From Acidobacteriota bacterium (GTDB lineage: Bacteria > Acidobacteriota > Vicinamibacteria > Vicinamibacterales > UBA8438), in contig JAPOYG010000346.1 in assembly GCA_026706755.1 (NCBI GenBank), positions 1-50,174 of the forward strand: a DNA stretch of 50,174 bases, given 5' to 3'. A program made the translations under genes and the position numbers. The notes beneath the pieces are model-generated. The model searched no databases and was not told where the DNA came from. It worked only from the letters and a program-made list of their open reading frames with translations. Numbering within the stretch: the stretch's first letter is position 1; the number at the start of each line of letters is the position of its first letter. Of this stretch, positions 1,251 through 13,985 are shown one piece after another.

Positions 1251-1982
1251 TCAGACGCGGTCCGACGGAGAGGGCTCGCCGCCCCGCGGGCGCTGCAGGG
1301 CCAGGAAGCACGCCGCCGACATCCCCGCCGCGCCGAACATCATGCACATCACCATGATCTGGTAGCGGACCGCGATCAACGGGGAGACGCCCGAGAGAAT
1401 CTGGCCGGTCATCATTCCGGGGAGCGACACCAGGCCCACCGCGAACAGCGAGTTGACCTGGGGAATCAGCGCCGAGCGCATGGCGATGGGACGCGCGTCG
1501 GGGTAGGTCGCGCCGCGGTTGAGCTCGGCGTCGAGCCGCTCCGCCGACAGGCTGACCGCGTTCATCGACGCCGCGAGCACCATTCCGCCCAGAGGGATGA
1601 GGACGGTCGGGTCGTGCCAGGGGTCGGCGGCCAGGACGCCCTGCGTGACCACGGCCAGGGTCGACAGCCCGCCGGCCGCGATCGCGGCCAGCGCGTGCGG
1701 GTAGACCGCTGCGCGGCGCGCGGCGATCGGCCGCAGCGAGATCCAGCCGGCGGCGGACAGCATGACGGCCAGGGCTCCGAGCACCACCGCCGGGTGCTCC
1801 GTCCCGAAGAGGAAGGTCAGCGTGTAGCCGACCAGCGCGAGTTGCGCCACCATGCGGCCGAGTCCGTAGAGGGCCGTGCCGGCTCCAATCGACCAGCGGT
1901 GGAGGACGGCCAGTACGACGGCGGCCGGCAGCAGCGCGAGACTGAGGTTGGCGATCGGGATCGCGTCGACGGCAGGGCTCAT
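1251..1982 (-). CDS. fetB: FetB/YbbM-family (UPF0014) ABC-type permease
   Basis: ORF 1251-2036 trimmed to the ATG at 1982 (MSPAVDAIPIANLSLALL). It is a multi-TM protein. The C-terminal ALIPQVNSLFAVGLVSLPGMMTGQILSGVSPLIAVRYQIMVM parallels the conserved VGLVSLPGMMSG...KYQIMV block of E. coli FetB. Confidence 0.8.
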   Translation of the reverse strand: MSPAVDAIPIANLSLALLPAAVVLAVLHRWSIGAGTALYGLGRMVAQLALVGYTLTFLFGTEHPAVVLGALAVMLSAAGWISLRPIAARRAAVYPHALAAIAAGGLSTLAVVTQGVLAADPWHDPTVLIPLGGMVLAASMNAVSLSAERLDAELNRGATYPDARPIAMRSALIPQVNSLFAVGLVSLPGMMTGQILSGVSPLIAVRYQIMVMCMMFGAAGMSAACFLALQRPRGGEPSPSDRV

Positions 1983-2156
1983 GGTCGCCGCAGAGCATAC
2001 CCGCCGCGCGGACGTGCGGAGAGCCGGGGCGTGCACGGGCGCCTGGCGCCACGGTCTCGAGCGGCCGCTCGGTCGCGGACCGCGGCTTCGCCCGGCGGCC
2101 CGGTCGCGGCGTTGCGGGGACGCGTGCGGATTGCCGGAGCGCGCCGGGGCGATCGG

Positions 2157-2744
2157 CTACTCCGGGGCCGCGGCGCCCGCCGCGTCGGAGGCCGGCGGCG
2201 GGGGTGGCGGCTCGGCCTGGGCCTGGGCCGGGGCGACGGGCTCCGGTTGGGCCGGCATGATGAGCCAGACCAGCACGTAGACGAGCACCCCGCCGACGAT
2301 CAGGCCCGGGAAGACCGACAGGACCACCCAGAGCAGGCGGACCGCGGTCGCGTCTACCTGAAAGTACTCGGCGATGCCTCCGCAGACGCCGCCGATCGTC
2401 ACGTCCCGCGTGGAGCGCTGCAGGCGCTTCCGGCCGCCGACCCCGCTGGTGATGACCGGCTCCGTGCCGTACGCGGCCTCCGGCACGATGAGCCAGCCCA
2501 CGGCGTAGGCGAGCACGCCGAGCAGGATGGTGCCGGGCACGATCGTCAGCACGACCCACAGCACCCGGACGAACACCGGGTCGACGTCGAGGTAGCGGGC
2601 TATGCCGCCGCACAGGCCGGCTATCTGGCGGTCCACCTGCGACCGCCGCAGCGCGGGCCGGTCCTCGGGTTCGCGGCGCGCGCCGCAGAACTGGCAGAAC
2701 GCCGCCGCGTCGGCCATTTCACGACCACATCGGTGACAGTGCAT
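2157..2744 (-). CDS. zinc-ribbon plus tandem PspC-domain membrane protein
   Basis: N-terminal MHCHRCG...FCQFCG zinc ribbon. There are two PspC-type units (IAGLCGGIARYLDVDPVFVRVLWVVL and IGGVCGGIAEYFQVDATAVRLLWVVL), each followed by a TM helix, then a Pro/Ala-rich tail. Confidence 0.8.
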   Translation of the reverse strand: MHCHRCGREMADAAAFCQFCGARREPEDRPALRRSQVDRQIAGLCGGIARYLDVDPVFVRVLWVVLTIVPGTILLGVLAYAVGWLIVPEAAYGTEPVITSGVGGRKRLQRSTRDVTIGGVCGGIAEYFQVDATAVRLLWVVLSVFPGLIVGGVLVYVLVWLIMPAQPEPVAPAQAQAEPPPPPPASDAAGAAAPE

Positions 2745-2878
2745 CGGTGCGTCCCCTCATTCGAGACATACGGAGCCGCGCCGCGCCGGTTCCATCGGCC
2801 AGACTCCTCGCCCGCCGTTCGTCGCCGCGACCGCCAGGTCGCGCTGCGGCCTCCGCCCGGCGCCCAGCCCAGTCCTTC

Positions 2879-2911
2879 AGGAGTCCGCGCCGTTCTACGG
2901 CGCGGACTCCT
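2879..2911 (-). repeat. REP-like perfect palindrome abutting the stop codon of the TolB-like gene
   Basis: AGGAGTCCGCGCC-GTTCTAC-GGCGCGGACTCCT, a 13-bp perfect stem with a 7-nt loop. The stop codon (cta at 2910-2912) overlaps the arm, so the minus-strand transcript reads UAGGAGUCCGCGCC GUAGAAC GGCGCGGACUCCU. This is the same sequence as at 44865-44898. Confidence 0.7.
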
Positions 2912-4703
2912 ACTCGGCCCCAGGCGGCCCGAAGACGGCCGCCTGCCAGCCGCCCAGAAGTTGCATCGCGTTCGACCGTCCCGCCGGCCGGAGCATCAGG
3001 AGCCGCGACCCTGCGTCGACATCGTACGCCGGCAGATTGTCCAGCGGATCCACGAGAAACGCTCCGTCGAAGAGGTGCTCGGGCACGCCGGCGGCCGGGC
3101 GGCCCGAGCCGTCGCCGGCGATCGCCACGCGGAAGAGCCCGCGCCCCCGCCGGTAGAACAGCGTGGCCTCGGAAGGCGCCCAGACCGGCTCGGTGCCGCC
3201 GGCCGGCGACACGCGGAGCGGCGGCCCGGCGTGGTCGTCGACCGCCCGCACGTACACCTGATCGCCGTCGCCCCGCTCGGCGTCCGACACGTAGGCCAGC
3301 CACCGGCCGTCCGGCGAGAACGCCGGCGCGCGCTCGTTGGCCGCGGTGGCCAGCCACGTCTCCGGCTCCGCGCCCCGCCGCCAGAGCCAGATGTCGCGGG
3401 CCCGGTCGGCGTGCACCTCGTGGAAGGCAAGGCGCTGCCCGTCCGGCGACCAGGAGCCGGGCGCCCGCAGGTCGCCGCCGAACAGCGGACCGGAGACCTC
3501 CGCGTTCCCGGTCCGGAGGCGGAAGACGCGCTGCAGGCCGGTGCGCGACGAGGCGAACGTCAGGGCCGCTCCGTCGCGCGTCCAGAGCGGCGAGTGGTTG
3601 TCGCCGGCGTCGCGCGTGAGCTGCCGCCGCGTGCCCCGGTCGAGGTCGAGCAGCCAGAGGTCGCGGCGCAGGACCGCCGTCGTGGCGCTGAACGCCGCCT
3701 GCCGGCCGTTCGGAGCGGTGCGCGGGGTCTGGTGCCGGGCCGCCACGCCGTCGACCGCCTCGAACCGGCCGTCCGGGTCGACCCGCACGAGGTGCGAATC
3801 GCCCTCCGCCCGGGTGGGCGGAACGAAGACGAGCGTTCCGTCCCGCGCCGCCGCGATCCGCGAGCGGCCCAGGCCGCGGTCGCCCACCGCGCGGCCCGCC
3901 ACGCCCCGGAGCACGGGCCGCGGCGAGGGCACGGGCTGCCGGCCGGCGCTCTCGAGGTCGATGGCGGCCGCGAAGATCTCGCCCCGCCGCGCGAACACGA
4001 CCGCGGACGGCGCGACGAAGTGACCCCCGCCGTCCGCGAGCGGCAGCGTGCGCGAGTCTCCCGTCTCGCGGTCGAGGAGAGCCAGGCGCGGGTCGCGCCC
4101 CCGGCGGCCCACCGTGTAGAGCACGTGGCGCGCGTCGATCGCGTGCGGCCAGCCGTGCGCCGTCTCCTCCGCCTCCTCGTCGACGGCGGTCAGCGCGACC
4201 GGGTCGCCGCCGCCGGCGGGCACTTCCTGGAGGCCGGCGCGCCCGGGGCCGCCGAAGAGGATCGTGCCGCCCGGAGTCCACGCCCCGCCGGCCGGCTCGC
4301 CGGCCAGGCGGCAGACGACGGCCGGCGCCGCCGCGTCGTCCCCCGGCGCCACCGTCTTGAGGAACCCGTCCGCGAAGAACCCCACCGTCTCGCCGTCGGG
4401 CGAGAAGAAGGGCTGGCTCGCACCCTCCGTGCCCGGGACGGACCGGGCGTCGAAGCGGTCCAGCCGCCGGACGTAGAGGCGAGAGCGCCCGTCCCGTATC
4501 GCGGTATAGGCGATCCGGCGGCCGTCGCCCGAGATCGCCACGTCGAGCAGGTCGAGGTCCGAGGACACGCGGATCGACACCGCCTGCCGCGGCGGGGGTG
4601 GGGGCGGGGGCTCCCGCAACAGGAGCCACGCCGCGCCGGCGCCGATCGCGGCCCCGGTCAGGGCCGCGAGGGCCGCGCTCGCGAGCACCGTGCGGCGCAC
4701 CAT
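2910..4703 (-). CDS. membrane-anchored TolB-like (PD40/WD40-like) beta-propeller protein
   Basis: N-terminal TM (VLASAALAALTGAAIGAGAAWLLL) and a poly-Pro linker. It is followed by repeated PD40-like units (FSPDGETVGF, WSPDGQRLAF, FSPDGRWLAYVSD, WTRDGAALTF). Confidence 0.75.
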   Translation of the reverse strand: MVRRTVLASAALAALTGAAIGAGAAWLLLREPPPPPPPRQAVSIRVSSDLDLLDVAISGDGRRIAYTAIRDGRSRLYVRRLDRFDARSVPGTEGASQPFFSPDGETVGFFADGFLKTVAPGDDAAAPAVVCRLAGEPAGGAWTPGGTILFGGPGRAGLQEVPAGGGDPVALTAVDEEAEETAHGWPHAIDARHVLYTVGRRGRDPRLALLDRETGDSRTLPLADGGGHFVAPSAVVFARRGEIFAAAIDLESAGRQPVPSPRPVLRGVAGRAVGDRGLGRSRIAAARDGTLVFVPPTRAEGDSHLVRVDPDGRFEAVDGVAARHQTPRTAPNGRQAAFSATTAVLRRDLWLLDLDRGTRRQLTRDAGDNHSPLWTRDGAALTFASSRTGLQRVFRLRTGNAEVSGPLFGGDLRAPGSWSPDGQRLAFHEVHADRARDIWLWRRGAEPETWLATAANERAPAFSPDGRWLAYVSDAERGDGDQVYVRAVDDHAGPPLRVSPAGGTEPVWAPSEATLFYRRGRGLFRVAIAGDGSGRPAAGVPEHLFDGAFLVDPLDNLPAYDVDAGSRLLMLRPAGRSNAMQLLGGWQAAVFGPPGAE

Positions 4704-4718
4704 GGGCAGGGCCTCGCC

Positions 4719-5702
4719 TCAGTCCCCGTAGCGGGCGCGGGCGGCGTCCAGATCCGCCGCAACCTGCCGCGCCAGACTCTCGGGCGCCCGCACGCGCACG
4801 CCCGGTCCGAAGCTCAGGATCCAGCTCCGCAGCGCCCCGTCGTTGCACACGTCCATCGTGACGACGACCGACCCCCCCGGCCCGGGCGCCAACGCCTGCG
4901 ACGGATGCCAGACCCGTTCCTGGACGTAGGGGGCGAGATCGGCCGCGAACTCGAGCTCGACCCGCTCGGGGGGGCCCTGGTGGATGCCGAGCGAGTGGGG
5001 GAAGGCCGCCTCGCCCAGGTCCTCGACCGGCTCGAAGGTCTCGTCGAGGGGCGTCAGGCGCCGGATCCGTTCGACGGCGAACGTGCGCACCTGGCCGTAG
5101 CGCGGCACGTAGGCGAAGAGATACAGGCCTCCTTCGGCGTAGACGAGGCGGTAGGGATCGATGCGGTACTCCTTCTCCCGCCGGCTGGATCGCGAGTGAT
5201 AGCGCATCTCCAGCCGGCGCTGGTGCAGCAGCGCGTCGAGGAGGCGGCCGATGGCGGCGCGCTGCAGCGCGTCGTCGAGGCGCCGCGCGGGCGGCGCCTT
5301 GGCCTGGATGACGTCCGGCAGGCGGTCGAGGAAGCGGCGCAGCCGCGGGCCGAGGGCCGCCTCGAGCTTGGCGAACGCTCCCCGGAGGTCCTGGCCGAAG
5401 GGCGGGAGGGCGAAGCATTCGACGAGCGTGCGGCTGAAGTAGAGCGCCGACAGCTCGGCGAGGGTGAAGGCCGTGTGATCGAGCCTCCGGAAGGGCCGCG
5501 TGTCGAGCCGCCAGCGCTTCGCGGCCTCGCCCGGCTCGTCGTAGAGCGGGAAGCCCGCCTCCTGCAAGGCCTCGAGGTCGCGGCGGATCGTCCTGGTGGT
5601 GACGCCGGTCGACTCGGCAAGCTGGCGGATCGTCGCGCCCCGCGAGGCCTCCATCTCGCGGAGGATGGTCCACTGGCGGATGACTTCGGCGTTGCGGGGC
5701 AT
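4719..5702 (-). CDS. HTH plus WYL-domain transcriptional regulator
   Basis: N-terminal winged-HTH (RQWTILREMEASRGATIRQLAESTGVTTRTIRRDLEALQEAGFPLY). The central WYL-type block is IDPYRLVYAEGGLYLFAYVPRYGQVRTFAVERI, followed by a C-terminal extension. There is only a 15-nt gap to the downstream TolB-like gene. Confidence 0.85.
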   Translation of the reverse strand: MPRNAEVIRQWTILREMEASRGATIRQLAESTGVTTRTIRRDLEALQEAGFPLYDEPGEAAKRWRLDTRPFRRLDHTAFTLAELSALYFSRTLVECFALPPFGQDLRGAFAKLEAALGPRLRRFLDRLPDVIQAKAPPARRLDDALQRAAIGRLLDALLHQRRLEMRYHSRSSRREKEYRIDPYRLVYAEGGLYLFAYVPRYGQVRTFAVERIRRLTPLDETFEPVEDLGEAAFPHSLGIHQGPPERVELEFAADLAPYVQERVWHPSQALAPGPGGSVVVTMDVCNDGALRSWILSFGPGVRVRAPESLARQVAADLDAARARYGD

Positions 5703-5945
5703 CGCGCGGGGCGGGCGCCGGCGGCGGTTCGCGGCATCGAACCGCGCCGGGGCGCGTCACGTCTCTTTCGATCATACGGGCGATGCGAAGACCCGCCGCC
5801 GGGTATGACCTTCCCTGTCACACCGCCCGCGTACGTTGGGTGGAGGCGGTCGCCTGTCGTCCCGAGCGCCCGCGGCCCCCGGCGTTGGACTCGCGGTGGG
5901 TGGAGGCGCGGCAGACACTCGGTACGCGATGGGGAAAGGGATACG

Positions 5946-6341
5946 ATGATGAGATGGCGCGCGGCGGGATCGACACGGCAGCTCGACCTCGGCTACAGCG
6001 CCGCGCGGCTGCCCGCCGCGCGGCGGGTCGCGGGCCCGCGACCCGGCCCGGCGCGGCTCTGCGCGGTGTGCGGTCGCTGGCCGGCTCGGCTCACTCTCGA
6101 ACGGACGCGCGGCGGCCCGCCCCCGCGCGTCTGCCTGCGCTGCCACGTGACGGCGTTGCGCCAGAGGCGGTCGGCGTACGCGGGGCCGGCGCGGAACGCG
6201 CAGCGTTCGACCGTGTCCGGCCGGAGCGACCTGATCGTCCCGCGGGAGAGCGCCCTGCCCCTCGAGGCGAAGTACCGGCTGCTCTCCCGGTCGCGCCGCG
6301 AGGCGCAGGAGGTTGCGCGGCGGGCTCTGATGTCGGACTGA
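5946..6341 (+). CDS. small Arg-rich putative zinc-ribbon protein (paralog 1)
   Basis: In-frame tail of the artefactual ORF 1614-6341, starting at ATGATG 5946, which is preceded by GAAAGGGA. About 9 in 10 codons end in G/C by my count. The motif is LCAVCG-x20-VCLRC-x3-ALR, and the C-terminal LPLEAKYRLLSRSRREAQEVARRAL looks helical. No family recognised. Confidence 0.4.
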   Translation: MMRWRAAGSTRQLDLGYSAARLPAARRVAGPRPGPARLCAVCGRWPARLTLERTRGGPPPRVCLRCHVTALRQRRSAYAGPARNAQRSTVSGRSDLIVPRESALPLEAKYRLLSRSRREAQEVARRALMSD

Positions 6342-6436
6342 AGGCGGACGGCGCGCCGCTCTTCCTCTACGGAAGGCGCTGCGGCCGCCGATACCTCGTA
6401 CAGGGGCTTGGGGCCCTTTCGCGGGAGGTGTGCGAC

Positions 6437-6664
6437 ATGACCAGTCTCGATGGCCCGGAAGGTGACGAAAGACGGCGCGAGATAGCCCGCCACGCGTCGC
6501 GGCGGGAAGGGAAGCTCTGTCGCCGCTGCGGGAAGCGCGACGCGCTGGCGGCTCGGTACACCTGGAAGCGGCGCGTCAACCGGCGACGCCATCACGACCT
6601 CTGCTTCCGCTGCCGCCGGGCGTTGCGGGATTCGGAACGGGCAACGGCTCCGCCGCGTCGCTGA
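6437..6664 (+). CDS. small Arg-rich putative zinc-ribbon protein (paralog 2)
   Basis: ATG 6437 is preceded by GGGAGG (6423-6428) at SD distance. The motif LCRRCG-x22-LCFRC-x2-ALR has the same pattern as ORF 5946-6341. The stop at 6662-6664 lies 3 nt before the AddB-like start candidate. Confidence 0.45.
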   Translation: MTSLDGPEGDERRREIARHASRREGKLCRRCGKRDALAARYTWKRRVNRRRHHDLCFRCRRALRDSERATAPPRR

Positions 6665-6667
6665 ACC

Positions 6668-9600
6668 TTGCGTCCGCCTGGTCGAGTAACGCTCCTTACC
6701 TCGCCGGCGGCGGCCGCCCGCCTCGCCGCCGCGGGCGATGCCCTGCGGCGCGGCCTCGCTGCCGGCGAGGCGGTGGCCGTGGGCGAGACCCGCGACGCCG
6801 TGGACGAGCTCGCGCACGAGGTCGCCCGGGACGCCGGGGCGACCTTCGGGCTCTACCGCTACAGCCTGCGGCAGCTTGCCGGGCGCATCGCCGCGGCGGA
6901 GCTCGCCCGGCGCGGGCTCGCGCCCGCCACCCGCCTGGCCGCGGAAGCCGTGGCCAAGCACGCTGCGTTCATCGAGCAGCAGCACCGGGCTCTCGACTAC
7001 CTGGGCCCCATCGCCGCGTTCCGCTCCTTCGGACGGGTGCTCGCGGCGACGCTCGGCGATCTCCGCCGGGCGGACTGCGATTCCGCGGCCGCCGGCGAGC
7101 TGGACGGCAGCGGCCCGGACGTCGCCCGCCTCGCGCGGCGCTACGACCGCCTGCTCGAAGAGGATCGCCTGGTCGACGGCGCGGCGCTGTACCGGGCGGC
7201 GGCCCGGCTCGTGCGGACAGGCGGCGCCGGCGCCGGGGCAACCCTCACCGGCGCGCTCGTGCTGCTGGACGTGGCGGTGACCGACGACGCCTCCTACGAG
7301 CTCGTGGCGGCGCTCGCCGGCCGCGCCGCCTCCGTGCTGGCCACCGTGCCTGCCGGCGACGAGCGCACGCTGGCGGCGCTCCGGCGCCTGCCGGGCGCCG
7401 TCGAGGAGGCCGCGCCGGGGAGCAGCGCCGCCCCGCGCGTGGACGAGCCGCTGCCGCGCGTGCAGCACTTCCTCTTCGCGCCCGCCGACCCGCCACCCTT
7501 CCGCGCCGCCGCCGACGAGCCGGCGATTCGCGTGTTCTCCGCGCCCGGGGAGAGCCGGGAGGCGGTCGAGATCGCCCGTGTCCTCGCCGCCGAGGCGGCG
7601 CGCGGCGTGCCGTTCGACCAGATGGCGGTGCTCGTGCGGTCGCCGGGCACCTACCTCCGTCTCGTGGAGACGGCGCTCGGACGCGCGGGCATCCCGGCCT
7701 GGTACGCCAAGGGGACGCGCGTTCCCGATCCGGCCGGCCGCGCGTTCCTGGCGCTGCTGGCCTGCGCCGCCGAGCAACTGTCGGCCCGCCGCTTCTCCGA
7801 GTACCTCTCGCTCGGCCAGGTACCGTCGCCTGCCCCGGACGGAGGCCCGCCCGCGGACCGGGGCCGCTGGGTCCCGCCCGACAGCGCTCCCGAACTCGTT
7901 CCGGCGCCCGCGCAGCTTGCGCTCTTCGACGCTCCATCGTCGGCGCCGGCGGACGCCGGCTCCCCGCCCGACGCGCCCCCGGACGGCGACGAGCGTCCGG
8001 TGCTCGAGGGATCGCTGCGCGCGCCCTTCCGCTGGGAGCGCCTGCTGGTCGAGTCGGCGGTGGTCGGCGGCCGGGACCGCTGGGAGCGGCGGCTGAAGGG
8101 TCTGGCCCGGGAGATGGCCCTCCAGGTCGCCGCCCTGCGCGCCGACGAGCCCGAGTCGCCGCGCGCGGCGCGCCTGGAGCTCGACCTCGCGAACCTGGAG
8201 CATCTGCGGCGCTTCGCGCTTCCGGTCGTCGCCCGACTCGCCGCGTTTCCGGCCGCCGCGCTCTGGGCCGAGTGGCTGGACCGGCTGGAGGCGCTGGCGC
8301 CGATGGTGCTCGCCGCGCCCGATCGGGTGCTGGCGGTGCTGGCCGACCTGCGTCCGATGGCCGCGGTAGGACCGGTGGGGCTCGGGGACGTCCGCGACGT
8401 CCTGCAGGAGCAGCTGACGGAGCTGACGGCCGAGCAGCCGGGGCGCCGCTTCGGGCGGGTGTTCGTCGGCGGCCCGGAGCAGGCGCGCGGCCGGCGCTTC
8501 GCCGTGGTCTGCGTGCCGGGGCTCGCCGAGCACGTCTTCCCGCAGCGGCAACGGCAGGATCCCCTGCTCCTGGACGAGCTTCGGGCCCGGCTCGACGCGC
8601 CGGAGCCGGGCACGCCGCGCCTGGGGCTGGCCGATCGGCACGATCGGAACGCGCGCGAGAAGCTGCTGCTGCGCCTGGCGGTGGGGGCCGCCACCGAGCG
8701 CGTCGTGCTCTCCTACCCGCGCCTGGAGGTCGGCTCGGCGCGTCCGCGCGTGCCGTCCTTCTACGCGCTGGACGTCGAGCGCGCCCGCACCGGGCGCGTG
8801 CCGGACTTCGAGCAGATCGAGCGCGACGCGTTCCGTGTCGTCGAGGCGCACCTGGCGTGGCCGGCCCCCAAGGATCCCGCCCGCGCCATCGACCCCTCCG
8901 AGCACGACCTGGCCGTGCTGCGCGAGCTGCTGCACGCGGCCCCGGAGGCGCCGCTCGCAGGCCGGGCGCGCTACCTGTTCCGGCTCCATCCTGCCCTGCG
9001 CCGCACCCTCGCCGCGCGCTGGGTGCGCTGGAAGCGGCCCTGGTCGAAGTTCGACGGGCTGTACGACCCCGGCGACCCCGACGCGAAGACCATGCTCGCG
9101 GCCCACCGGCTGGATGCCCGGGCGTACTCCGTCTCCGCGCTGCAGCGCTTCGCGGCCTGCCCCTACCAGTTCCTGCTGTCCGCCGTCCACCGCCTGCACC
9201 CGCGCGAGGAGGTCGAGCCGCCCCTGGAGCGGATGGATCCGCTGACGCGCGGCAGCATGTTCCACGAGGTGCAGCAGGAGGTGTTCGACGCGCTCCGCGA
9301 GCGGCGGGCGTTGCCCCTGACGGCCGCGGGCGTCCCGGAGGCCGACGTCGTGACCGACGCGGTGCTCGATCGCGTCGCGGCCGACTACGAGGAACGGCTC
9401 GCCCCCGCCATCCCGCGCGTCTGGCAGGACGAGGTGGAATCGATGCGGGCCGACCTGAAGGGCTGGCTGCGCCACGTCGCCAACGAGGGCGGCGAGTGGA
9501 GGCCGATCGACGCGGAGTTCCCCTTCGGCCTCGGCCCCCGCGCGGAGCCGGACGGACCCGCCGCGGTGGGCGGGCGGCCGCGGCCTCCGGGGGCCGATGC

Positions 9601-10108
9601 GGGGTGGGATCCCGACTGCGCGCCGGATCCCGCGGCGATCGACGGGCGCTGGCGGCTGCGCGGGAGGGTGGATCTCGTCGAGGCGCGGACCGGTCCGACC
9701 GACCGCGGCGAGCTGCGCGTGACGGACCACAAGACCGGCGGGAACCGCACCCGCCCGGGCATGGTGGTCGGCGGGGGCGAGACGCTGCAGCCCGTCCTCT
9801 ACGGTCTCGCCGTCGAGGAGGTCTCGGGGCGTCCCGTCGACGAGGCGCGGCTGTTCTTCTGCACCGCGACCGGGCGCTACGAGCAGCGCGTCGTGTCCCT
9901 CGGCGAGGACGAGCGCCGGCACGGCGTCGAGGTGCTGGAGATCATCGACCGGGCGGTCGAGGCGGGCACCCTGCTTCCGGCGCCGCGGGAGGGTGCCTGC
10001 CGGTGGTGCGACTACCAGGCCGTGTGCGGACCGGGCGCGGAGCAGCGCGCGGCACGCAAGGATGGTGCGCCGCTCCGCGATCTGGCTGGCCTCCGGGACC
10101 TCCGATGA
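6668..10108 (+). CDS. addB: AddB-like PD-(D/E)XK nuclease subunit with Fe-S cluster cysteines (no Walker A seen)
   Basis: 1146-aa ORF. The C-terminal nuclease core is [11 protein letters not shown]. The Cys pattern is FAACPYQF ... [10 protein letters not shown] (C-x2-C-x5-C at 9998-10027), as in AddB/Cas4-type nucleases. It sits 10 nt upstream of the AddA-like gene. The start is uncertain: TTG 6668 has no SD, and an in-frame GTG near 6771 is an alternative. Confidence 0.8.
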
Positions 10109-10118
10109 GGGCGCCGCG

Positions 10119-13100
10119 ATGAGCGTGCCGCCGCTCGCCGACGCGGACGTCCGGCACCGCATCCGGACGGCGCTCGACGAGTCGATCGTCGTGGAGGCGG
10201 CCGCCGGGACGGGGAAGACCAGCGTCCTGGTGGAGCGCATCGTCGAGGTGCTCGCGGCCGGGCGCGCCCCCGTGGACGAGATCCTGGCCGTCACCTTCAC
10301 CGAGAAGGCCGCGGGCGAGCTGAAGCTGCGGCTTCGAGGAGCGCTCGAGGAGGCCCGGCGGCACGCCGCCGCGGCCGGGCCCGACCCCGCCGCCGCCGAG
10401 CGCCACCGGTGCCTCGACGAGGCCATCGCCCACCTGGAGGAGGCGCAGGTCAGCACCATCCACGCATTCTGCGCCGACCTGCTGCGGGAGCGCCCCGTGG
10501 AGGCCCGCGTCGACCCCCGGTTCGAGGTTCTCGACGACCGCGGCGCGCAGCGCCTGTTCCGGCAGGTGTTCGACGGCTGGCTGCAGACGGCCCTGGACGA
10601 CCCGCCGCCGGGCGTGCGGCGCGCGCTCTGGCGCCGGGACCGGCCCGCGTTCGGTGAGCCGGGCGGCGACGGCCCGACGGGGCGCCTGCGGCGCGCGGCC
10701 TGGGAGCTGGCGGAATGGCGGGACTTCGAACGGCCCTGGCGCCGGGAAGCGGACTTCCGGCGCGAGGCGACCATCGACGAAGTGGTCGGGCACCTGGTGC
10801 GCTTCGCCGCCCTGACGGACCGGGCCGCCAACCGCCGCAGCGACGGCCTCTTCCTCGACACCGAGCCTGCGCGCTCGGTCGCGCGGTCGATCCGGGAGTC
10901 CGACGACGTGCGCTCGCAGCGGGACTACGACTTCGTCGAGGCGCAACTGGTCGAGCTGGCCGCGCACCGCCGCTTCGCCCGACCGCGCAAGGGGTTCGGC
11001 GCGGTGTACGGGGAGGATCTTCCCCGCGCGCACGTTCTCGAGCAGCACGAGGGAGTCGTCGCCGTGCTCGAGCGCTTCCGGGCGGTGGCGGACGCCGATC
11101 TCGCCGCGCTGCTCCGGGAGGAGCTCCGGGCGCCGATCGAAGGCTACGGGCAGGCGAAGACGGAGGCGGGGCGCCTCGACTTCGTCGACCTCCTGCTGCG
11201 GGCGCGAGACCTGATCTGCGGCCACGACGACGTCCGTGCCGCGGCGCAGCGGCGATACGCGCGGGTCTTCGTCGACGAGTTCCAGGACACCGATCCGCTC
11301 CAGGCCGAGATTCTGCTCCTGCTGGCGGCGGAGGATCCGTCCGAGCGCGACTGGCGCGCGGTCGTCCCCGCGGCGGGGAAGCTCTTCATCGTCGGCGATC
11401 CGAAGCAGTCGATCTACCGCTTCCGCCGCGCCGACGTCGGGGTCTACCGCCAGGTGACCGTGCAGCTCGCGCGGCACGAAGTGGCGCATGTCGCGCTCAC
11501 CACGAGCTTCCGCGCCGTCCCCGCCATCCAGCGCTTCGTCAACCATGCCTTCGCGCCGCTGATGGGCACGCCGGGGGACGCCGCCCCGGACGGGGACGAC
11601 GGTGGGGTGGTGGGCGGCGCGGCGGTCGGCGGCTCCAGCGGGGAAGACCGCCCGGCGGGCGCGGCGGTCGGGGGCGCGGCGGCCGGCGGCCCCCCCGGGC
11701 TGCCCGGCTACGTGCCGCTGGCGGCGCACCGTGCGGACGACCCGAAGCAGCCGGCGGTCGTGGCGTTGCCGGTCCCTCGCCCCTACGGCCCCTGGGGGCG
11801 TCCCACGGGTCGGGCGATCGAGGCATCGCTCCCGGATGCGGTGGGGGCGTTCGTCGCATGGCTCGTCCGCGAGAGCGGCTGGACCGTCACCGAGCGGCAG
11901 GCGCGGCCGGCGTCGGGCGGCTACGAGACGGTGCCCGTGCCCGTCGAGGCGCGGCACGTCGCGCTGCTGTTCCGCCGCTTCTACGCCTGGGGGAGCGACG
12001 TCACGCGCAGCTACGTCGACGCCCTCGAGGCCCGCGGGCTGCGCCATCTCCTGGTCGGCGGCCGCTCGTTCCACGAGCGCGACGAGGTGGCGGCGATGCG
12101 CGCGGTGCTGACCGCCATCGAGTGGCCGGACGACGAGCTGGCCGTCTTCGCGGCCCTCCGCGGGACGCTGTTCGCAGTGGACGACGAGACGCTCCTGGCG
12201 TACCGCCACCGCTTCGGCCGCTTCCATCCGTTCCGGGTCCCCCGCGCGCTGACGGCGGGCGAGATCGAGGGTGCGGATCGCCTGCTGCCGGTCGCCGACG
12301 CCCTGGAGCTGCTGCGGCGGCTGCACCGCACCCGCAACGAGGTCCCGATCGCGCACACGATCGGACAGTTGCTCGAGGCGACGCGGGCCCATGCCGGCTT
12401 CGTGATGCGCCGGGCGGGCGAGCAGGTGCTCGCCAACGTGCTGCAGCTCGGGGAGATGGCCCGCCGCTACGAGCAGGGCGGCGGCCTCTCCTTCCGTGGA
12501 TTCGTCGAGGAGCTGCGCGACGAGGCGGCCGAAGGTCAGGCCGGGGAGGCGCCCATCCTGGAGCAGGGGAGCGACGGCGTGCGGATCATGACCGTGCACG
12601 GGGCCAAGGGGCTCGAGTTCCCGGTGGTGATCCTCGCGGACCCGACGTCCCGGCTGCACCGGGCCACGGCCGGCCGCTTCATCGACTCCGCGCGGGGCAT
12701 CTGCGCGCTGCGGCTGGGCGGCTGGGCTCCGCTCGATCTGCTCGACCACGAGGCGGAGGAGATCGCGCGGGACCGCGAGGAGGGGATTCGGCTGGCCTAC
12801 GTGGCCGCCACCCGAGCCCGCGACCTCCTGGTGGTGCCGGCCGAGGGAGACGCGGCGCCCGCCGAGGACTGGACCGTCCGCGGGGACGCGGGAGCGACGC
12901 GGGCGCACCCGTTGCGCGGCGGTTGGGCGAGCCCGCTCTATGCGTCGCTCTATCCCCCGCTCGATCGCCGGCGCCATCCGGAGGCGGCGGCCGGATGCCC
13001 CGCGTTCGGGCGCGATTCCGTGCTTGCGCGGCCGCCCGAGGAACCCGGCGGCGAGGACAACGTCGCCCCGGGCCGGCATGTCGTCGGGAGGGGGCCGGGC

Positions 13101-13985
13101 ACCGCCCGCGGGCAGGTGTCGGGACGCATCCTGCCGTTCGCGGGCGGCCGGGCCGCCGCCGGGCCGGGAGCCGATGCGGGGCACTCGGTGGTCTGGTGGG
13201 ATCCCGGACTGCTGCAGCTCGACTCGGACGCGGCGGTCGGCATCCGCCGCGAGGATCTGCTGTCGCGGGACGCGCCCGGCGAGCAGGTGGAGCAGGATCT
13301 CCAGCGCTATCGTGCGTGGTTGCGGCGCCACGGGGAGACCGTGGAGAAGGGGGCCCGGCCGAGCCTTGCCGTGACGACGGCGACCGAGCTCGCGCGCGAA
13401 GCGCCTGCCGAGCCGGTCGACGAGGAGTCGCTTGCCGCGCCCTCCCCGCCGCTCGCCGTGACCCTCGTGGAGCTGCCGCGCGATTCCGGGCGGCCGGAGG
13501 GCCCGCGCTTCGGCTCCCTGGTGCACCAGGTCCTGGCCGACGTGCCGCTGGACGAGGCGGCCGCGGCGGATCCCCGAGCCGCGGGGGCGACGGGTGGGGC
13601 ATCCGCATCGGTATCCGCCGTCGCCCGCCTGAACGGCCGCATCCTGGGCGCGACCGAAGAGGAGATCGCGGCCGCGGCCCGCGTGGCGGCGCGCGTCCTG
13701 GAGCACCCCCTGCTGGCGCGCGCGCGGGCGGCGTCACGCCGCGGGGAATGCCGCCGGGAGGCTCCGGTGAGCATGCGCGCGGACGACGGTCGCGTGATCG
13801 AGGGGACGGTCGACGTCGCGTTCCGCGAGGACGGGGTCTGGACGGTTGTCGATTACAAGACCGACCGCGAGATCGGCGAGGCGGGGGGTGCGGCCGAGGT
13901 GTACCGGCGGCAGGTCACCCTCTATGCGCGCATCATTGCCCGGGCGACCGGCGAGCCGGCCCAAGCCGTGCTGCTGCGCGTGTGA
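10119..13985 (+). CDS. addA: AddA-like UvrD/Rep-family helicase with C-terminal PD-(D/E)XK nuclease
   Basis: ORF 9993-13985 trimmed to ATG 10119 ([11 protein letters not shown]). It has Walker [54 protein letters not shown] and [13 protein letters not shown]. The C-terminal nuclease block is [21 protein letters not shown] ... YRRQVTLYA. Confidence 0.85.

Follow-up and report, generated by a model that had tools for sequence, protein, structure and literature searches.

Locus organization

The locus described here lies on contig JAPOYG010000346.1 of an Acidobacteriota bacterium from the order Vicinamibacterales (NCBI GenBank assembly GCA_026706755.1). The stretch analysed, positions 1 to 50,174 of the forward strand, is referred to as the window. 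Within it, two small open reading frames (ORFs), ORF1 and ORF2, are followed by the genes of an AddAB-like helicase-nuclease and preceded, in divergent orientation, by a gene for an HTH-WYL-WCX transcription regulator. An earlier note on this DNA, made from the sequence, had singled out the two ORFs as paralogous Arg-rich mini-proteins with four cysteines each, and had proposed that they are zinc ribbons binding nucleic acids and co-expressed with the helicase-nuclease.

ORF1 extends on the forward strand from ATG 5946 to TGA 6341, encodes 131 amino acids (aa) including LCAVCGRWPARLTLERTRGGPPPRVCLRCHVTALRQRR, and represents the long form of the protein family described below. ORF2, on the same strand, runs from ATG 6437 to TGA 6664, encodes 75 aa including LCRRCGKRDALAARYTWKRRVNRRRHHDLCFRCRRALRDSER, and is a ribbon-only form. 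The window has a G+C content of 72.6% and carries long artefactual ORFs in every frame. Both small ORFs are hidden in such frames, as the note had pointed out: ORF1 within the same-frame ORF 1614..6341 and ORF2 within 5783..6664. Likewise borne out were the purine-rich Shine-Dalgarno-like sequences upstream of both ATG codons (GGGGAAAGGGA at 5931-5941 and GGGAGG at 6423-6428) and the close approach of ORF2 to the AddB-like frame, which opens at TTG 6668, 3 nt past the ORF2 stop. The claim of G/C-dominated third codon positions held fully for ORF1, whose G+C content at these positions (GC3) of 0.92 matches that of the real neighbour genes (0.92-0.94), but held less well for ORF2 (0.77).

ORF1 is composed of an N-terminal RQLDLGY peptide (5976-5996), a C4 ribbon formed by C39/C42/C63/C66 plus H67 (6060-6146), an unconstrained linker and a C-terminal DLIVPR...KYRLLSRSRREAQEVARRAL tail (6222-6335). 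The peptide and the Arg-rich helix of the tail are recurring modules that the note had passed over. ORF2 consists of a ribbon with C28/C31/C56/C59 and an invariant HHDLC. In both proteins two CxxC knuckles, conserved in homologues, are spaced by about 20-25 residues, which is the sequence pattern of a C4 zinc ribbon or treble clef. The shared L-C-x2-C-G...C-x-R-C arrangement recognized earlier is real and lies far beyond chance.

Both small ORFs are conserved genes

Comparison with related genomes shows that ORF1 and ORF2 are genuine conserved genes which, as judged from their alignments, are under purifying selection. Both ORFs have stop-free homologues, recovered by a six-frame search of relatives: aa identity is 75-95% for the four other species in the genus, and 50-61% where the genus differs but the bacterial family is the same. 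Altogether, stop-free homologues with in-frame indels were found across 10 genomes from at least 6 genera. The ORF1 alignment of ten genomes contains many indels, every one of them in frame, and the C-terminal motif stays in register. The four cysteines are invariant in 21/21 aligned ORF1 and 9/9 ORF2 sequences, as are H67, QRR, LIVPR and AQ..AR in ORF1 and HHDLC in ORF2.

Pairwise ratios of nonsynonymous to synonymous substitution rates (dN/dS, Nei-Gojobori) ranged from 0.16 to 0.58 for ORF1 and from 0.15 to 0.65 for ORF2. At similar synonymous divergence, the neighbouring genes gave 0.06-0.14 (WYL) and 0.18-0.37 (AddB). Constraint in ORF1 is unevenly distributed, with a dN/dS of 0.30 in the ribbon, 0.42 in the tail and a neutral 1.28 in the linker. 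Homologues, dN/dS and cysteine conservation were among the checks which the earlier note had put forward, and all three came out in favour of protein-coding genes; the frame-disrupting differences in close relatives that it had named as counter-evidence were not encountered. One family match in another genome (locus L019, G036:C153:1522-1890) and several others carry one in-frame stop; these copies may be decaying or mis-assembled.

An undescribed family of modular Arg-rich proteins

Direct comparison of ORF1 and ORF2 by hhalign aligned the four cysteines, with weak significance (P=0.0085, probability 4.7%). We do not take this as a refutation of paralogy, because a bridging family links both proteins. 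Intermediate forms found in the order combine an ORF2-type ribbon (C..C..R.A.F.YRG.VKADR.HTLCF.CYR) with an ORF1-type N-terminal QL.L peptide and an ORF1-type C-terminal helix. The profile built from these forms, A3, matched ORF1 over its full length (98.2%, E 6e-14) and ORF2 over the ribbon (97.3%, E 2.4e-11) in hhalign. Common ancestry of ORF1 and ORF2 is therefore supported by transitivity, at the level of sequence profiles, and the paralogy postulated in the note stands on this bridge rather than on the direct comparison.

Elsewhere in the order, several families have beside the WYL gene, and behind the promoter motif described below, a gene for a ribbon-less form of about 64 aa, for example MTRFDGTAARQLDLI...RLLKQDVYAELxRRRRRAQIAARHAL, which has no cysteines at the ribbon positions. 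Its tail aligns with the ORF1 tail (82%, E 1.1e-5), and its N-terminal (G)T.A(R)QLDL resembles that of ORF1, as judged by eye. At least 1100 sequence clusters of this form exist in public metagenomes, and all source names among the 120 clusters listed read 'hypothetical protein'. Ribbon-only, ORF2-like genes follow the motif in another family (loci L104 and L105), and one locus (L158) encodes a short form followed by a separate ribbon-bearing ORF. Since the motif-preceded gene beside WYL is ribbon-less in several families, the ribbon is regarded as an optional module. The family is therefore modular. Its parts are the RQLDL peptide at the N-terminus, the C4 ribbon, which may be missing, and the Arg-rich helix at the C-terminus; by this sequence-based definition, ORF1 carries all three modules and ORF2 is the ribbon module alone. 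The N-terminal peptide occurs in the variants QLDLGY, QLDFTY and QLDLI, with Q12 present in at least 90% of the sequences and L13 invariant. The residues around it in ORF1, RFDGTAAR, are conserved as well.

By these searches the family is an undescribed one of small Arg-rich proteins. Scans of ORF1, ORF2, the bridging and the ribbon-less forms against Pfam, NCBIfam and PADLOC gave nothing above threshold, and a sequence profile search of the PDB returned merely zinc-knuckle noise from LIM, uS14 and eL37 (E>0.1). Pfam DUF7685 (PF24734) shares a short CxxC...CxxC ribbon with the family. However, some ORF1 homologues reach 25.5-26.5 bits on this model, under its gathering score of 27 bits, and ORF1 and ORF2 from the window give no match even at E<=10. 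AlphaFold2 (AF2) models of both proteins display a disordered N-terminus and a knuckle plus a helix that begins with the second CxxC; the helices of ORF1 span residues 64-77 and 106-129, and its QLDL segment has a predicted local distance difference test score (pLDDT) below 50.

Some relatives lie outside the usual context, and two distant matches, P0067 and P0073, are on contigs whose short length gives no information on their surroundings. In the same genome, a third, ribbon-only member (a 91-aa frame; C446:7218-7403) is located behind an unusually AT-rich stretch, without the WYL motif, and may have been acquired. Another genus of the same bacterial family harbours lone ORF2-type genes far from AddAB and WYL (L163-L165 and L040:8828-9034), which adjoin a PemK toxin pair, an AAA_14/DUF4143 ATPase plus IS66 transposase, or a macro-domain gene. 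The ORF1 tail, in the form DLIVPRxSxLPxxxKYRLLSxxRRRAQExARRVL, recurs in DUF4097 'toastrack' proteins, both in the same genome (C89:2240-2386, C426:1364-1489 and C430:12108-12230) and in a relative (L083:2882-4567). The extracytoplasmic function (ECF) sigma factors encoded before these DUF4097 genes belong to a subfamily that has expanded to about five copies in the genus and has a Cys-rich N-terminal extension (CPLLDRD..AWLRCC).

The constant partner is a WYL regulator

The divergent gene on the reverse strand (4719..5702) encodes an HTH-WYL-WCX transcription regulator, with Pfam matches to WYL (1.4e-18), WCX (2.1e-17) and HTH_11 (2.1e-10). It has the same domain class as DriD, CapW, SiwR and PafBC. 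The gene order TolB-like(-) WYL(-) / ORF1(+) [ORF2(+)] AddB(+) AddA(+) is found in 23/23 species loci; ORF2 is present in 18 of them and missing from five. LexA and RecA are encoded elsewhere in the genome, apart from the locus.

Association of the small genes with the regulator reaches far beyond this bacterial family. Among 301 Vicinamibacterales genomes, which are phylogenetically related so that the counts are not independent, a WYL orthologue (E<=1e-50) was present in 202 and the small-protein family (profile A3, E<=1e-4) in 135, the latter covering 77 of 119 genera. Outside the order, it was detected in one of about 360 Acidobacteriota sampled, which suggests a family almost confined to Vicinamibacterales. 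In at least 43 genomes a family match and the WYL gene are no more than 3 kb apart, and 41 of the 47 such matches listed are on the divergent side. Most family members across the order do not adjoin AddAB. In addition, sister genera within the same bacterial family whose AddB gene is accompanied by neither ORF1 nor ORF2 also lack a WYL gene and the motif upstream of AddB. Because AddB loci without the mini-genes thus lack regulator and motif too, WYL, motif and small gene behave as one module. On these genome comparisons, the stronger association of the small-protein family is with the WYL regulator and its promoter motif, its constant partner, and not with AddAB.

A variant arrangement was seen in another family of the order (L041:8051-11654 in genome G035), where the motif separates a small gene from a divergent htpG-WYL pair. 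There the WYL start and the htpG stop overlap, and the regulator is thereby linked to the gene of an Hsp90 chaperone.

A conserved promoter element upstream of ORF1

Between the WYL gene and ORF1, a candidate WYL operator occupies positions 5802..5824 of the forward strand. It is an imperfect palindrome, GGTATGAC-CTTCCCT-GTCACACC, with the cores TGAC (5806-5809) and GTCAC (5817-5821). A -10-like hexamer, TACGTT (5832..5837, forward strand), follows exactly 10 nt past GTCAC. Across species the intergenic element reads GGTRTGAC-N7-GTCACACC, again with a TAnnnT hexamer exactly 10 nt beyond GTCAC. All 23 species loci contain RTGAC-N7-GTCAC 5′ of ORF1, a feature shared by distant family members, and GTCA[CT]-N10-TAnnnT is equally universal (23/23). 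The GTC of the right palindrome arm is situated about 26 nt upstream of the predicted start. Reading the sequence at 16-18 nt from the -10 hexamer revealed no -35 hexamer, and a scan for canonical sigma-70 promoters (5600-6800) and terminators found none.

The full pattern, TGAC-N7-GTCAY-N10-TAnnnT, is a single copy in the 5.8-Mb genome. Five other genomes of the order contain one or two copies each, versus none of the reversed control pattern. Seven of the eight sites in these five genomes directly precede a family member or AddB; the eighth (L144, G106:C46:5127-5158) falls within the 3′ end of a gene for alanine racemase, with radA about 430 nt further downstream. A wider regulon in the present genome was considered and rejected, as the bipartite motif occurs once and a half-match on contig C260 is no more than chance would produce.

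Two further features of the intergenic region deserve mention. A direct repeat, GGGTGGAGGCG, occurs at 5838-5848 and 5898-5908 with a spacing of 60 bp, just downstream of the predicted -10 hexamer and within the predicted 5′ untranslated region of ORF1. In the alignment it is intact in the two closest species alone; two further species of the genus have it in degraded form, and other genera lack it. At 5768-5777, between the WYL start and the palindrome, lies a conserved block that reads TCGATCATAC here and TCAATAATAA/G in other genera. Its minus strand reads TATGAT, a -10-like sequence that could serve the promoter of the WYL gene itself.

The AddAB-like genes

The AddB-like PD-(D/E)XK nuclease subunit is encoded at 6668..10108 on the forward strand (Pfam PDDEXK_1, 8.3e-30), and the AddA-like UvrD-helicase/nuclease subunit at 10119..13985 on the same strand (UvrD-helicase, 2e-53, and PDDEXK_1). 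NCBIfam addA models matched at 1e-70 with 239 bits versus an equivalog cut-off of 861, and the match to the AddB model was weak, with 33 bits versus 904. We call the genes AddAB-like because their domain content fits but the equivalog cut-offs are not reached. They form the sole such pair in the genome. The longest AddA-like ORF begins at GTG 9993 and overlaps AddB by 116 nt. Because homologues align only from residue ~41, translation more likely begins at ATG 10119, 10 nt past the AddB stop. AddB and AddA share the orientation of ORF1 and ORF2 and come after them with gaps of 3-35 nt. Placement of the mini-genes immediately upstream of the AddB-like gene, a central point of the earlier note, was recovered with the same orientation and tight spacing at every locus of this bacterial family.

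Comparison with known WYL systems

The closest precedent for the promoter is PafBC of mycobacteria, whose mode of action is known as 'sigma adaptation'. Its motif, tGTCgg(N10)tA(N3)T, comprises a GTC '-26 element' that is contacted by the WYL regulator and replaces -35 recognition (PMC8635444, PMC11804915). In mycobacteria, single-stranded DNA (ssDNA) is the activating signal (PMC8635444). The element described here, TGTCAC(N10)TAnnnT, has the same bipartite layout: the -35 box is missing, a GTC is located about 26 nt upstream, the spacing to TAnnnT is identical, and a WYL regulator is encoded next to it. In contrast to the heterodimeric PafBC, however, the GTC arm is one half of a 23-bp palindrome, which would suit a homodimer. 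Moreover, PafBC acts in Actinobacteria on more than 100 genes, whereas there are one or two sites per genome in these Acidobacteriota, and the likeness is one of sequence.

With respect to its local range, the regulator resembles SiwR from M. smegmatis, a homodimeric WYL activator that works through the -26 region of one adjacent operon under genotoxic stress (PMC10693628). Both regulators sit beside a single target operon, a putative one in our case, and share the -26 region. SiwR targets, however, are DinB/YfiT-like metalloenzymes and its triplet is GGA, whereas here small Arg-rich proteins and AddAB follow a GTC. A third parallel is provided by the pairs DriD-didA in Caulobacter and DdaA-aciT in Acinetobacter, in which an ssDNA-sensing HTH-WYL protein acts on a palindromic site of about 20 bp and a small lineage-specific effector is induced together with repair genes (PMC9186387, PMC13010146). 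An HTH-WYL regulator, a palindromic site and a small lineage-specific protein alongside repair genes also characterize our locus. Nevertheless, DidA and AciT are cell-division inhibitors without sequence relation to the ORF1/ORF2 family, and DriD promoters retain both -35 and -10 elements.

Interpretation

Taken together, our preferred explanation, to which we assign a probability of about 0.6, is that ORF1 and ORF2 are two diverged members of one small Arg-rich family, the signature target of the HTH-WYL-WCX regulator encoded beside them. By analogy with the systems above, of which DriD, PafBC and SiwR all respond to ssDNA as activating signal, it is fairly probable that the WYL protein would bind the bipartite element and switch on ORF1-ORF2-AddB-AddA when DNA damage yields ssDNA. 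An activator rather than a repressor is favoured because of the missing -35 box. On the same analogy, the small proteins are probably DNA-damage-induced effectors; as stress-induced effector or adaptor proteins, and not fixed AddAB subunits, they would most likely work where replication or repair sites are damaged, by binding DNA or a partner protein. As to the identity of a partner, the odds for any single candidate are low: the sliding clamp and AddAB itself are both tentative suggestions, and a sigma factor or RNA polymerase is at best as likely as either.

Several points weigh against this explanation. Some WYL proteins of the same class, such as CapW and BrxR, are repressors, typically with a palindromic site. 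Since one operon seems to make up the whole regulon here, the term 'DNA-damage response' rests on analogy and on the downstream AddAB genes. ORF2-type relatives occur in accessory regions, and the GC3 of ORF2 is atypical for the locus. At the structural level, the AF2 models are of moderate confidence (pLDDT 66.7 for ORF1 and 65.0 for ORF2), and Foldseek searches of both against the PDB gave nothing below E=1, the best matches being generic zinc fingers at E 1.6 or worse. Finally, the resemblance of the N-terminal peptide to a clamp-binding motif, discussed below, is a match of a short peptide to a motif from the literature.

The view closest to the earlier note is that the mini-proteins are dedicated accessory subunits of AddAB, basic zinc ribbons which bind DNA ends or AddB/AddA and are kept in fixed proportion by translational coupling. 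It draws on the invariant gene order in 23 species, the distance of 3-35 nt between the ORF2 stop and the AddB start, and the presence of a sole AddAB-like pair in the genome. Likewise in its favour, one regulator in a distant bacterial family (locus L091) has two copies of the WYL motif around it, one belonging to the mini-gene and the other to AddBA. The partnership with the helicase-nuclease thus holds as far as orientation and tight spacing in this bacterial family are concerned, but not as a constant association, which is with WYL and the motif. Most family members in the order are not beside AddAB, AddB of sister genera has no mini-genes, ORF2 is missing at 5/23 loci, ribbon-less forms exist, and ORF2-type genes stand alone in accessory regions. 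We therefore rate the subunit hypothesis as rather unlikely.

Alternatively, the small proteins might act at the level of transcription, either in feedback on WYL or through anti-sigma-like binding of a sigma factor or RNA polymerase by the C-terminal helix, so that the response is relayed or damped. The gene is nearly always beside the regulator, even where no repair gene is nearby. Furthermore, residues 93-130 of ORF1, its tail, share 55-67% identity with the cytoplasmic N-terminus of the single-pass DUF4097 proteins. The genes for the latter come directly behind ECF sigma genes, where anti-sigma factors are classically encoded, and this hints at a sigma-binding helix. On the other hand, there is no sigma gene beside ORF1 or other family members, and DUF4097 proteins with this tail occur in the present genus alone, as if the domain had been captured recently. 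Library scans also detected no similarity of ORF1 and ORF2 to known anti-sigma domains. A role in transcription is an unlikely solution on this balance.

A more specific proposal starts from the N-terminal peptide. Hda binds the clamp through an N-terminal motif, QLSLF or 6-QLSLPL-11 (PMC5397184). A short QL-x-L-x peptide is likewise located near the N-terminus of the small proteins, in a region predicted to be disordered, as RQLDLGY in ORF1 and ARQLDLI in ribbon-less forms. Its final hydrophobic residue is Y or I, however, where the clamp motif has F or L, and the RFDGTAAR flank is conserved here although a plain clamp motif would not require it. DinB of this genome has no recognisable C-terminal clamp motif and is uninformative on the local flavour of such motifs. 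If the resemblance were meaningful, the family might constitute a hitherto unrecognised class of DNA-damage-induced sliding-clamp ligands. These would be small proteins, disordered for the most part, in which a clamp-binding QLDL peptide at the N-terminus is combined with an Arg-rich helix for DNA binding and, in some members, a zinc ribbon. Induced by an ssDNA-sensing WYL activator via a PafBC-like promoter, they could hold or mark clamps at broken forks, pausing replication or handing the DNA end to AddAB. As a complete scenario we consider this doubtful.

Much the same components could belong to a phage-defence or abortive-infection module, in which a CapW/BrxR-like WYL repressor would release a toxic small effector and a nuclease upon infection. 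HTH-WYL-WCX repressors are known to guard defence systems and to sense ssDNA (PMC11662680), and the operator at our locus is palindromic. Some ORF2-type genes reside beside toxin-antitoxin and insertion sequence elements, and one in a prophage-like stretch (locus L095). Yet synteny is vertical and order-wide, the AddAB-like pair is the sole one in the genome, and the promoter without a -35 box points to activation. PADLOC gave no hit for ORF1 or ORF2, with neighbours matching generic WYL, Cas4 and GajB superfamily models only, and protein searches of phage and plasmid collections retrieved no relatives of the two proteins. A defence function is thus very improbable. The idea that the two frames are chance ORFs in GC-rich non-coding DNA or the leader region of addB, for which the low GC3 of ORF2 and the very long artefactual ORFs across the region might be quoted, is effectively refuted by a frame that survives many indels, invariant cysteines, a dN/dS below 1 in the motifs and about 1.3 in the linker, homologues at other loci and in other bacterial families, and zero matches in an Rfam scan of 5400-7000.

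Implications

It is becoming clear that bacteria have, in the WYL regulators, a second route of DNA-damage sensing that does not depend on LexA and whose outputs are known in few lineages. If our preferred explanation is correct, in which the Arg-rich family is the signature target of such a regulator, the locus would follow the known scheme of a WYL regulator coupled to a small damage-response effector, with an undescribed, order-wide protein family and a PafBC-like layout outside Actinobacteria. A promoter layout of the PafBC type may thus extend beyond Actinobacteria. With one regulator, one operator and one operon, it is a compact system for studying how an AddAB-type enzyme is switched on and what a small protein with a clamp-motif-like peptide or an Arg-rich helix contributes to repair. 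In abundant and rarely cultured soil Acidobacteria, the locus represents an order-wide module in which a regulator is combined with a conserved promoter element and a putative effector of small size.

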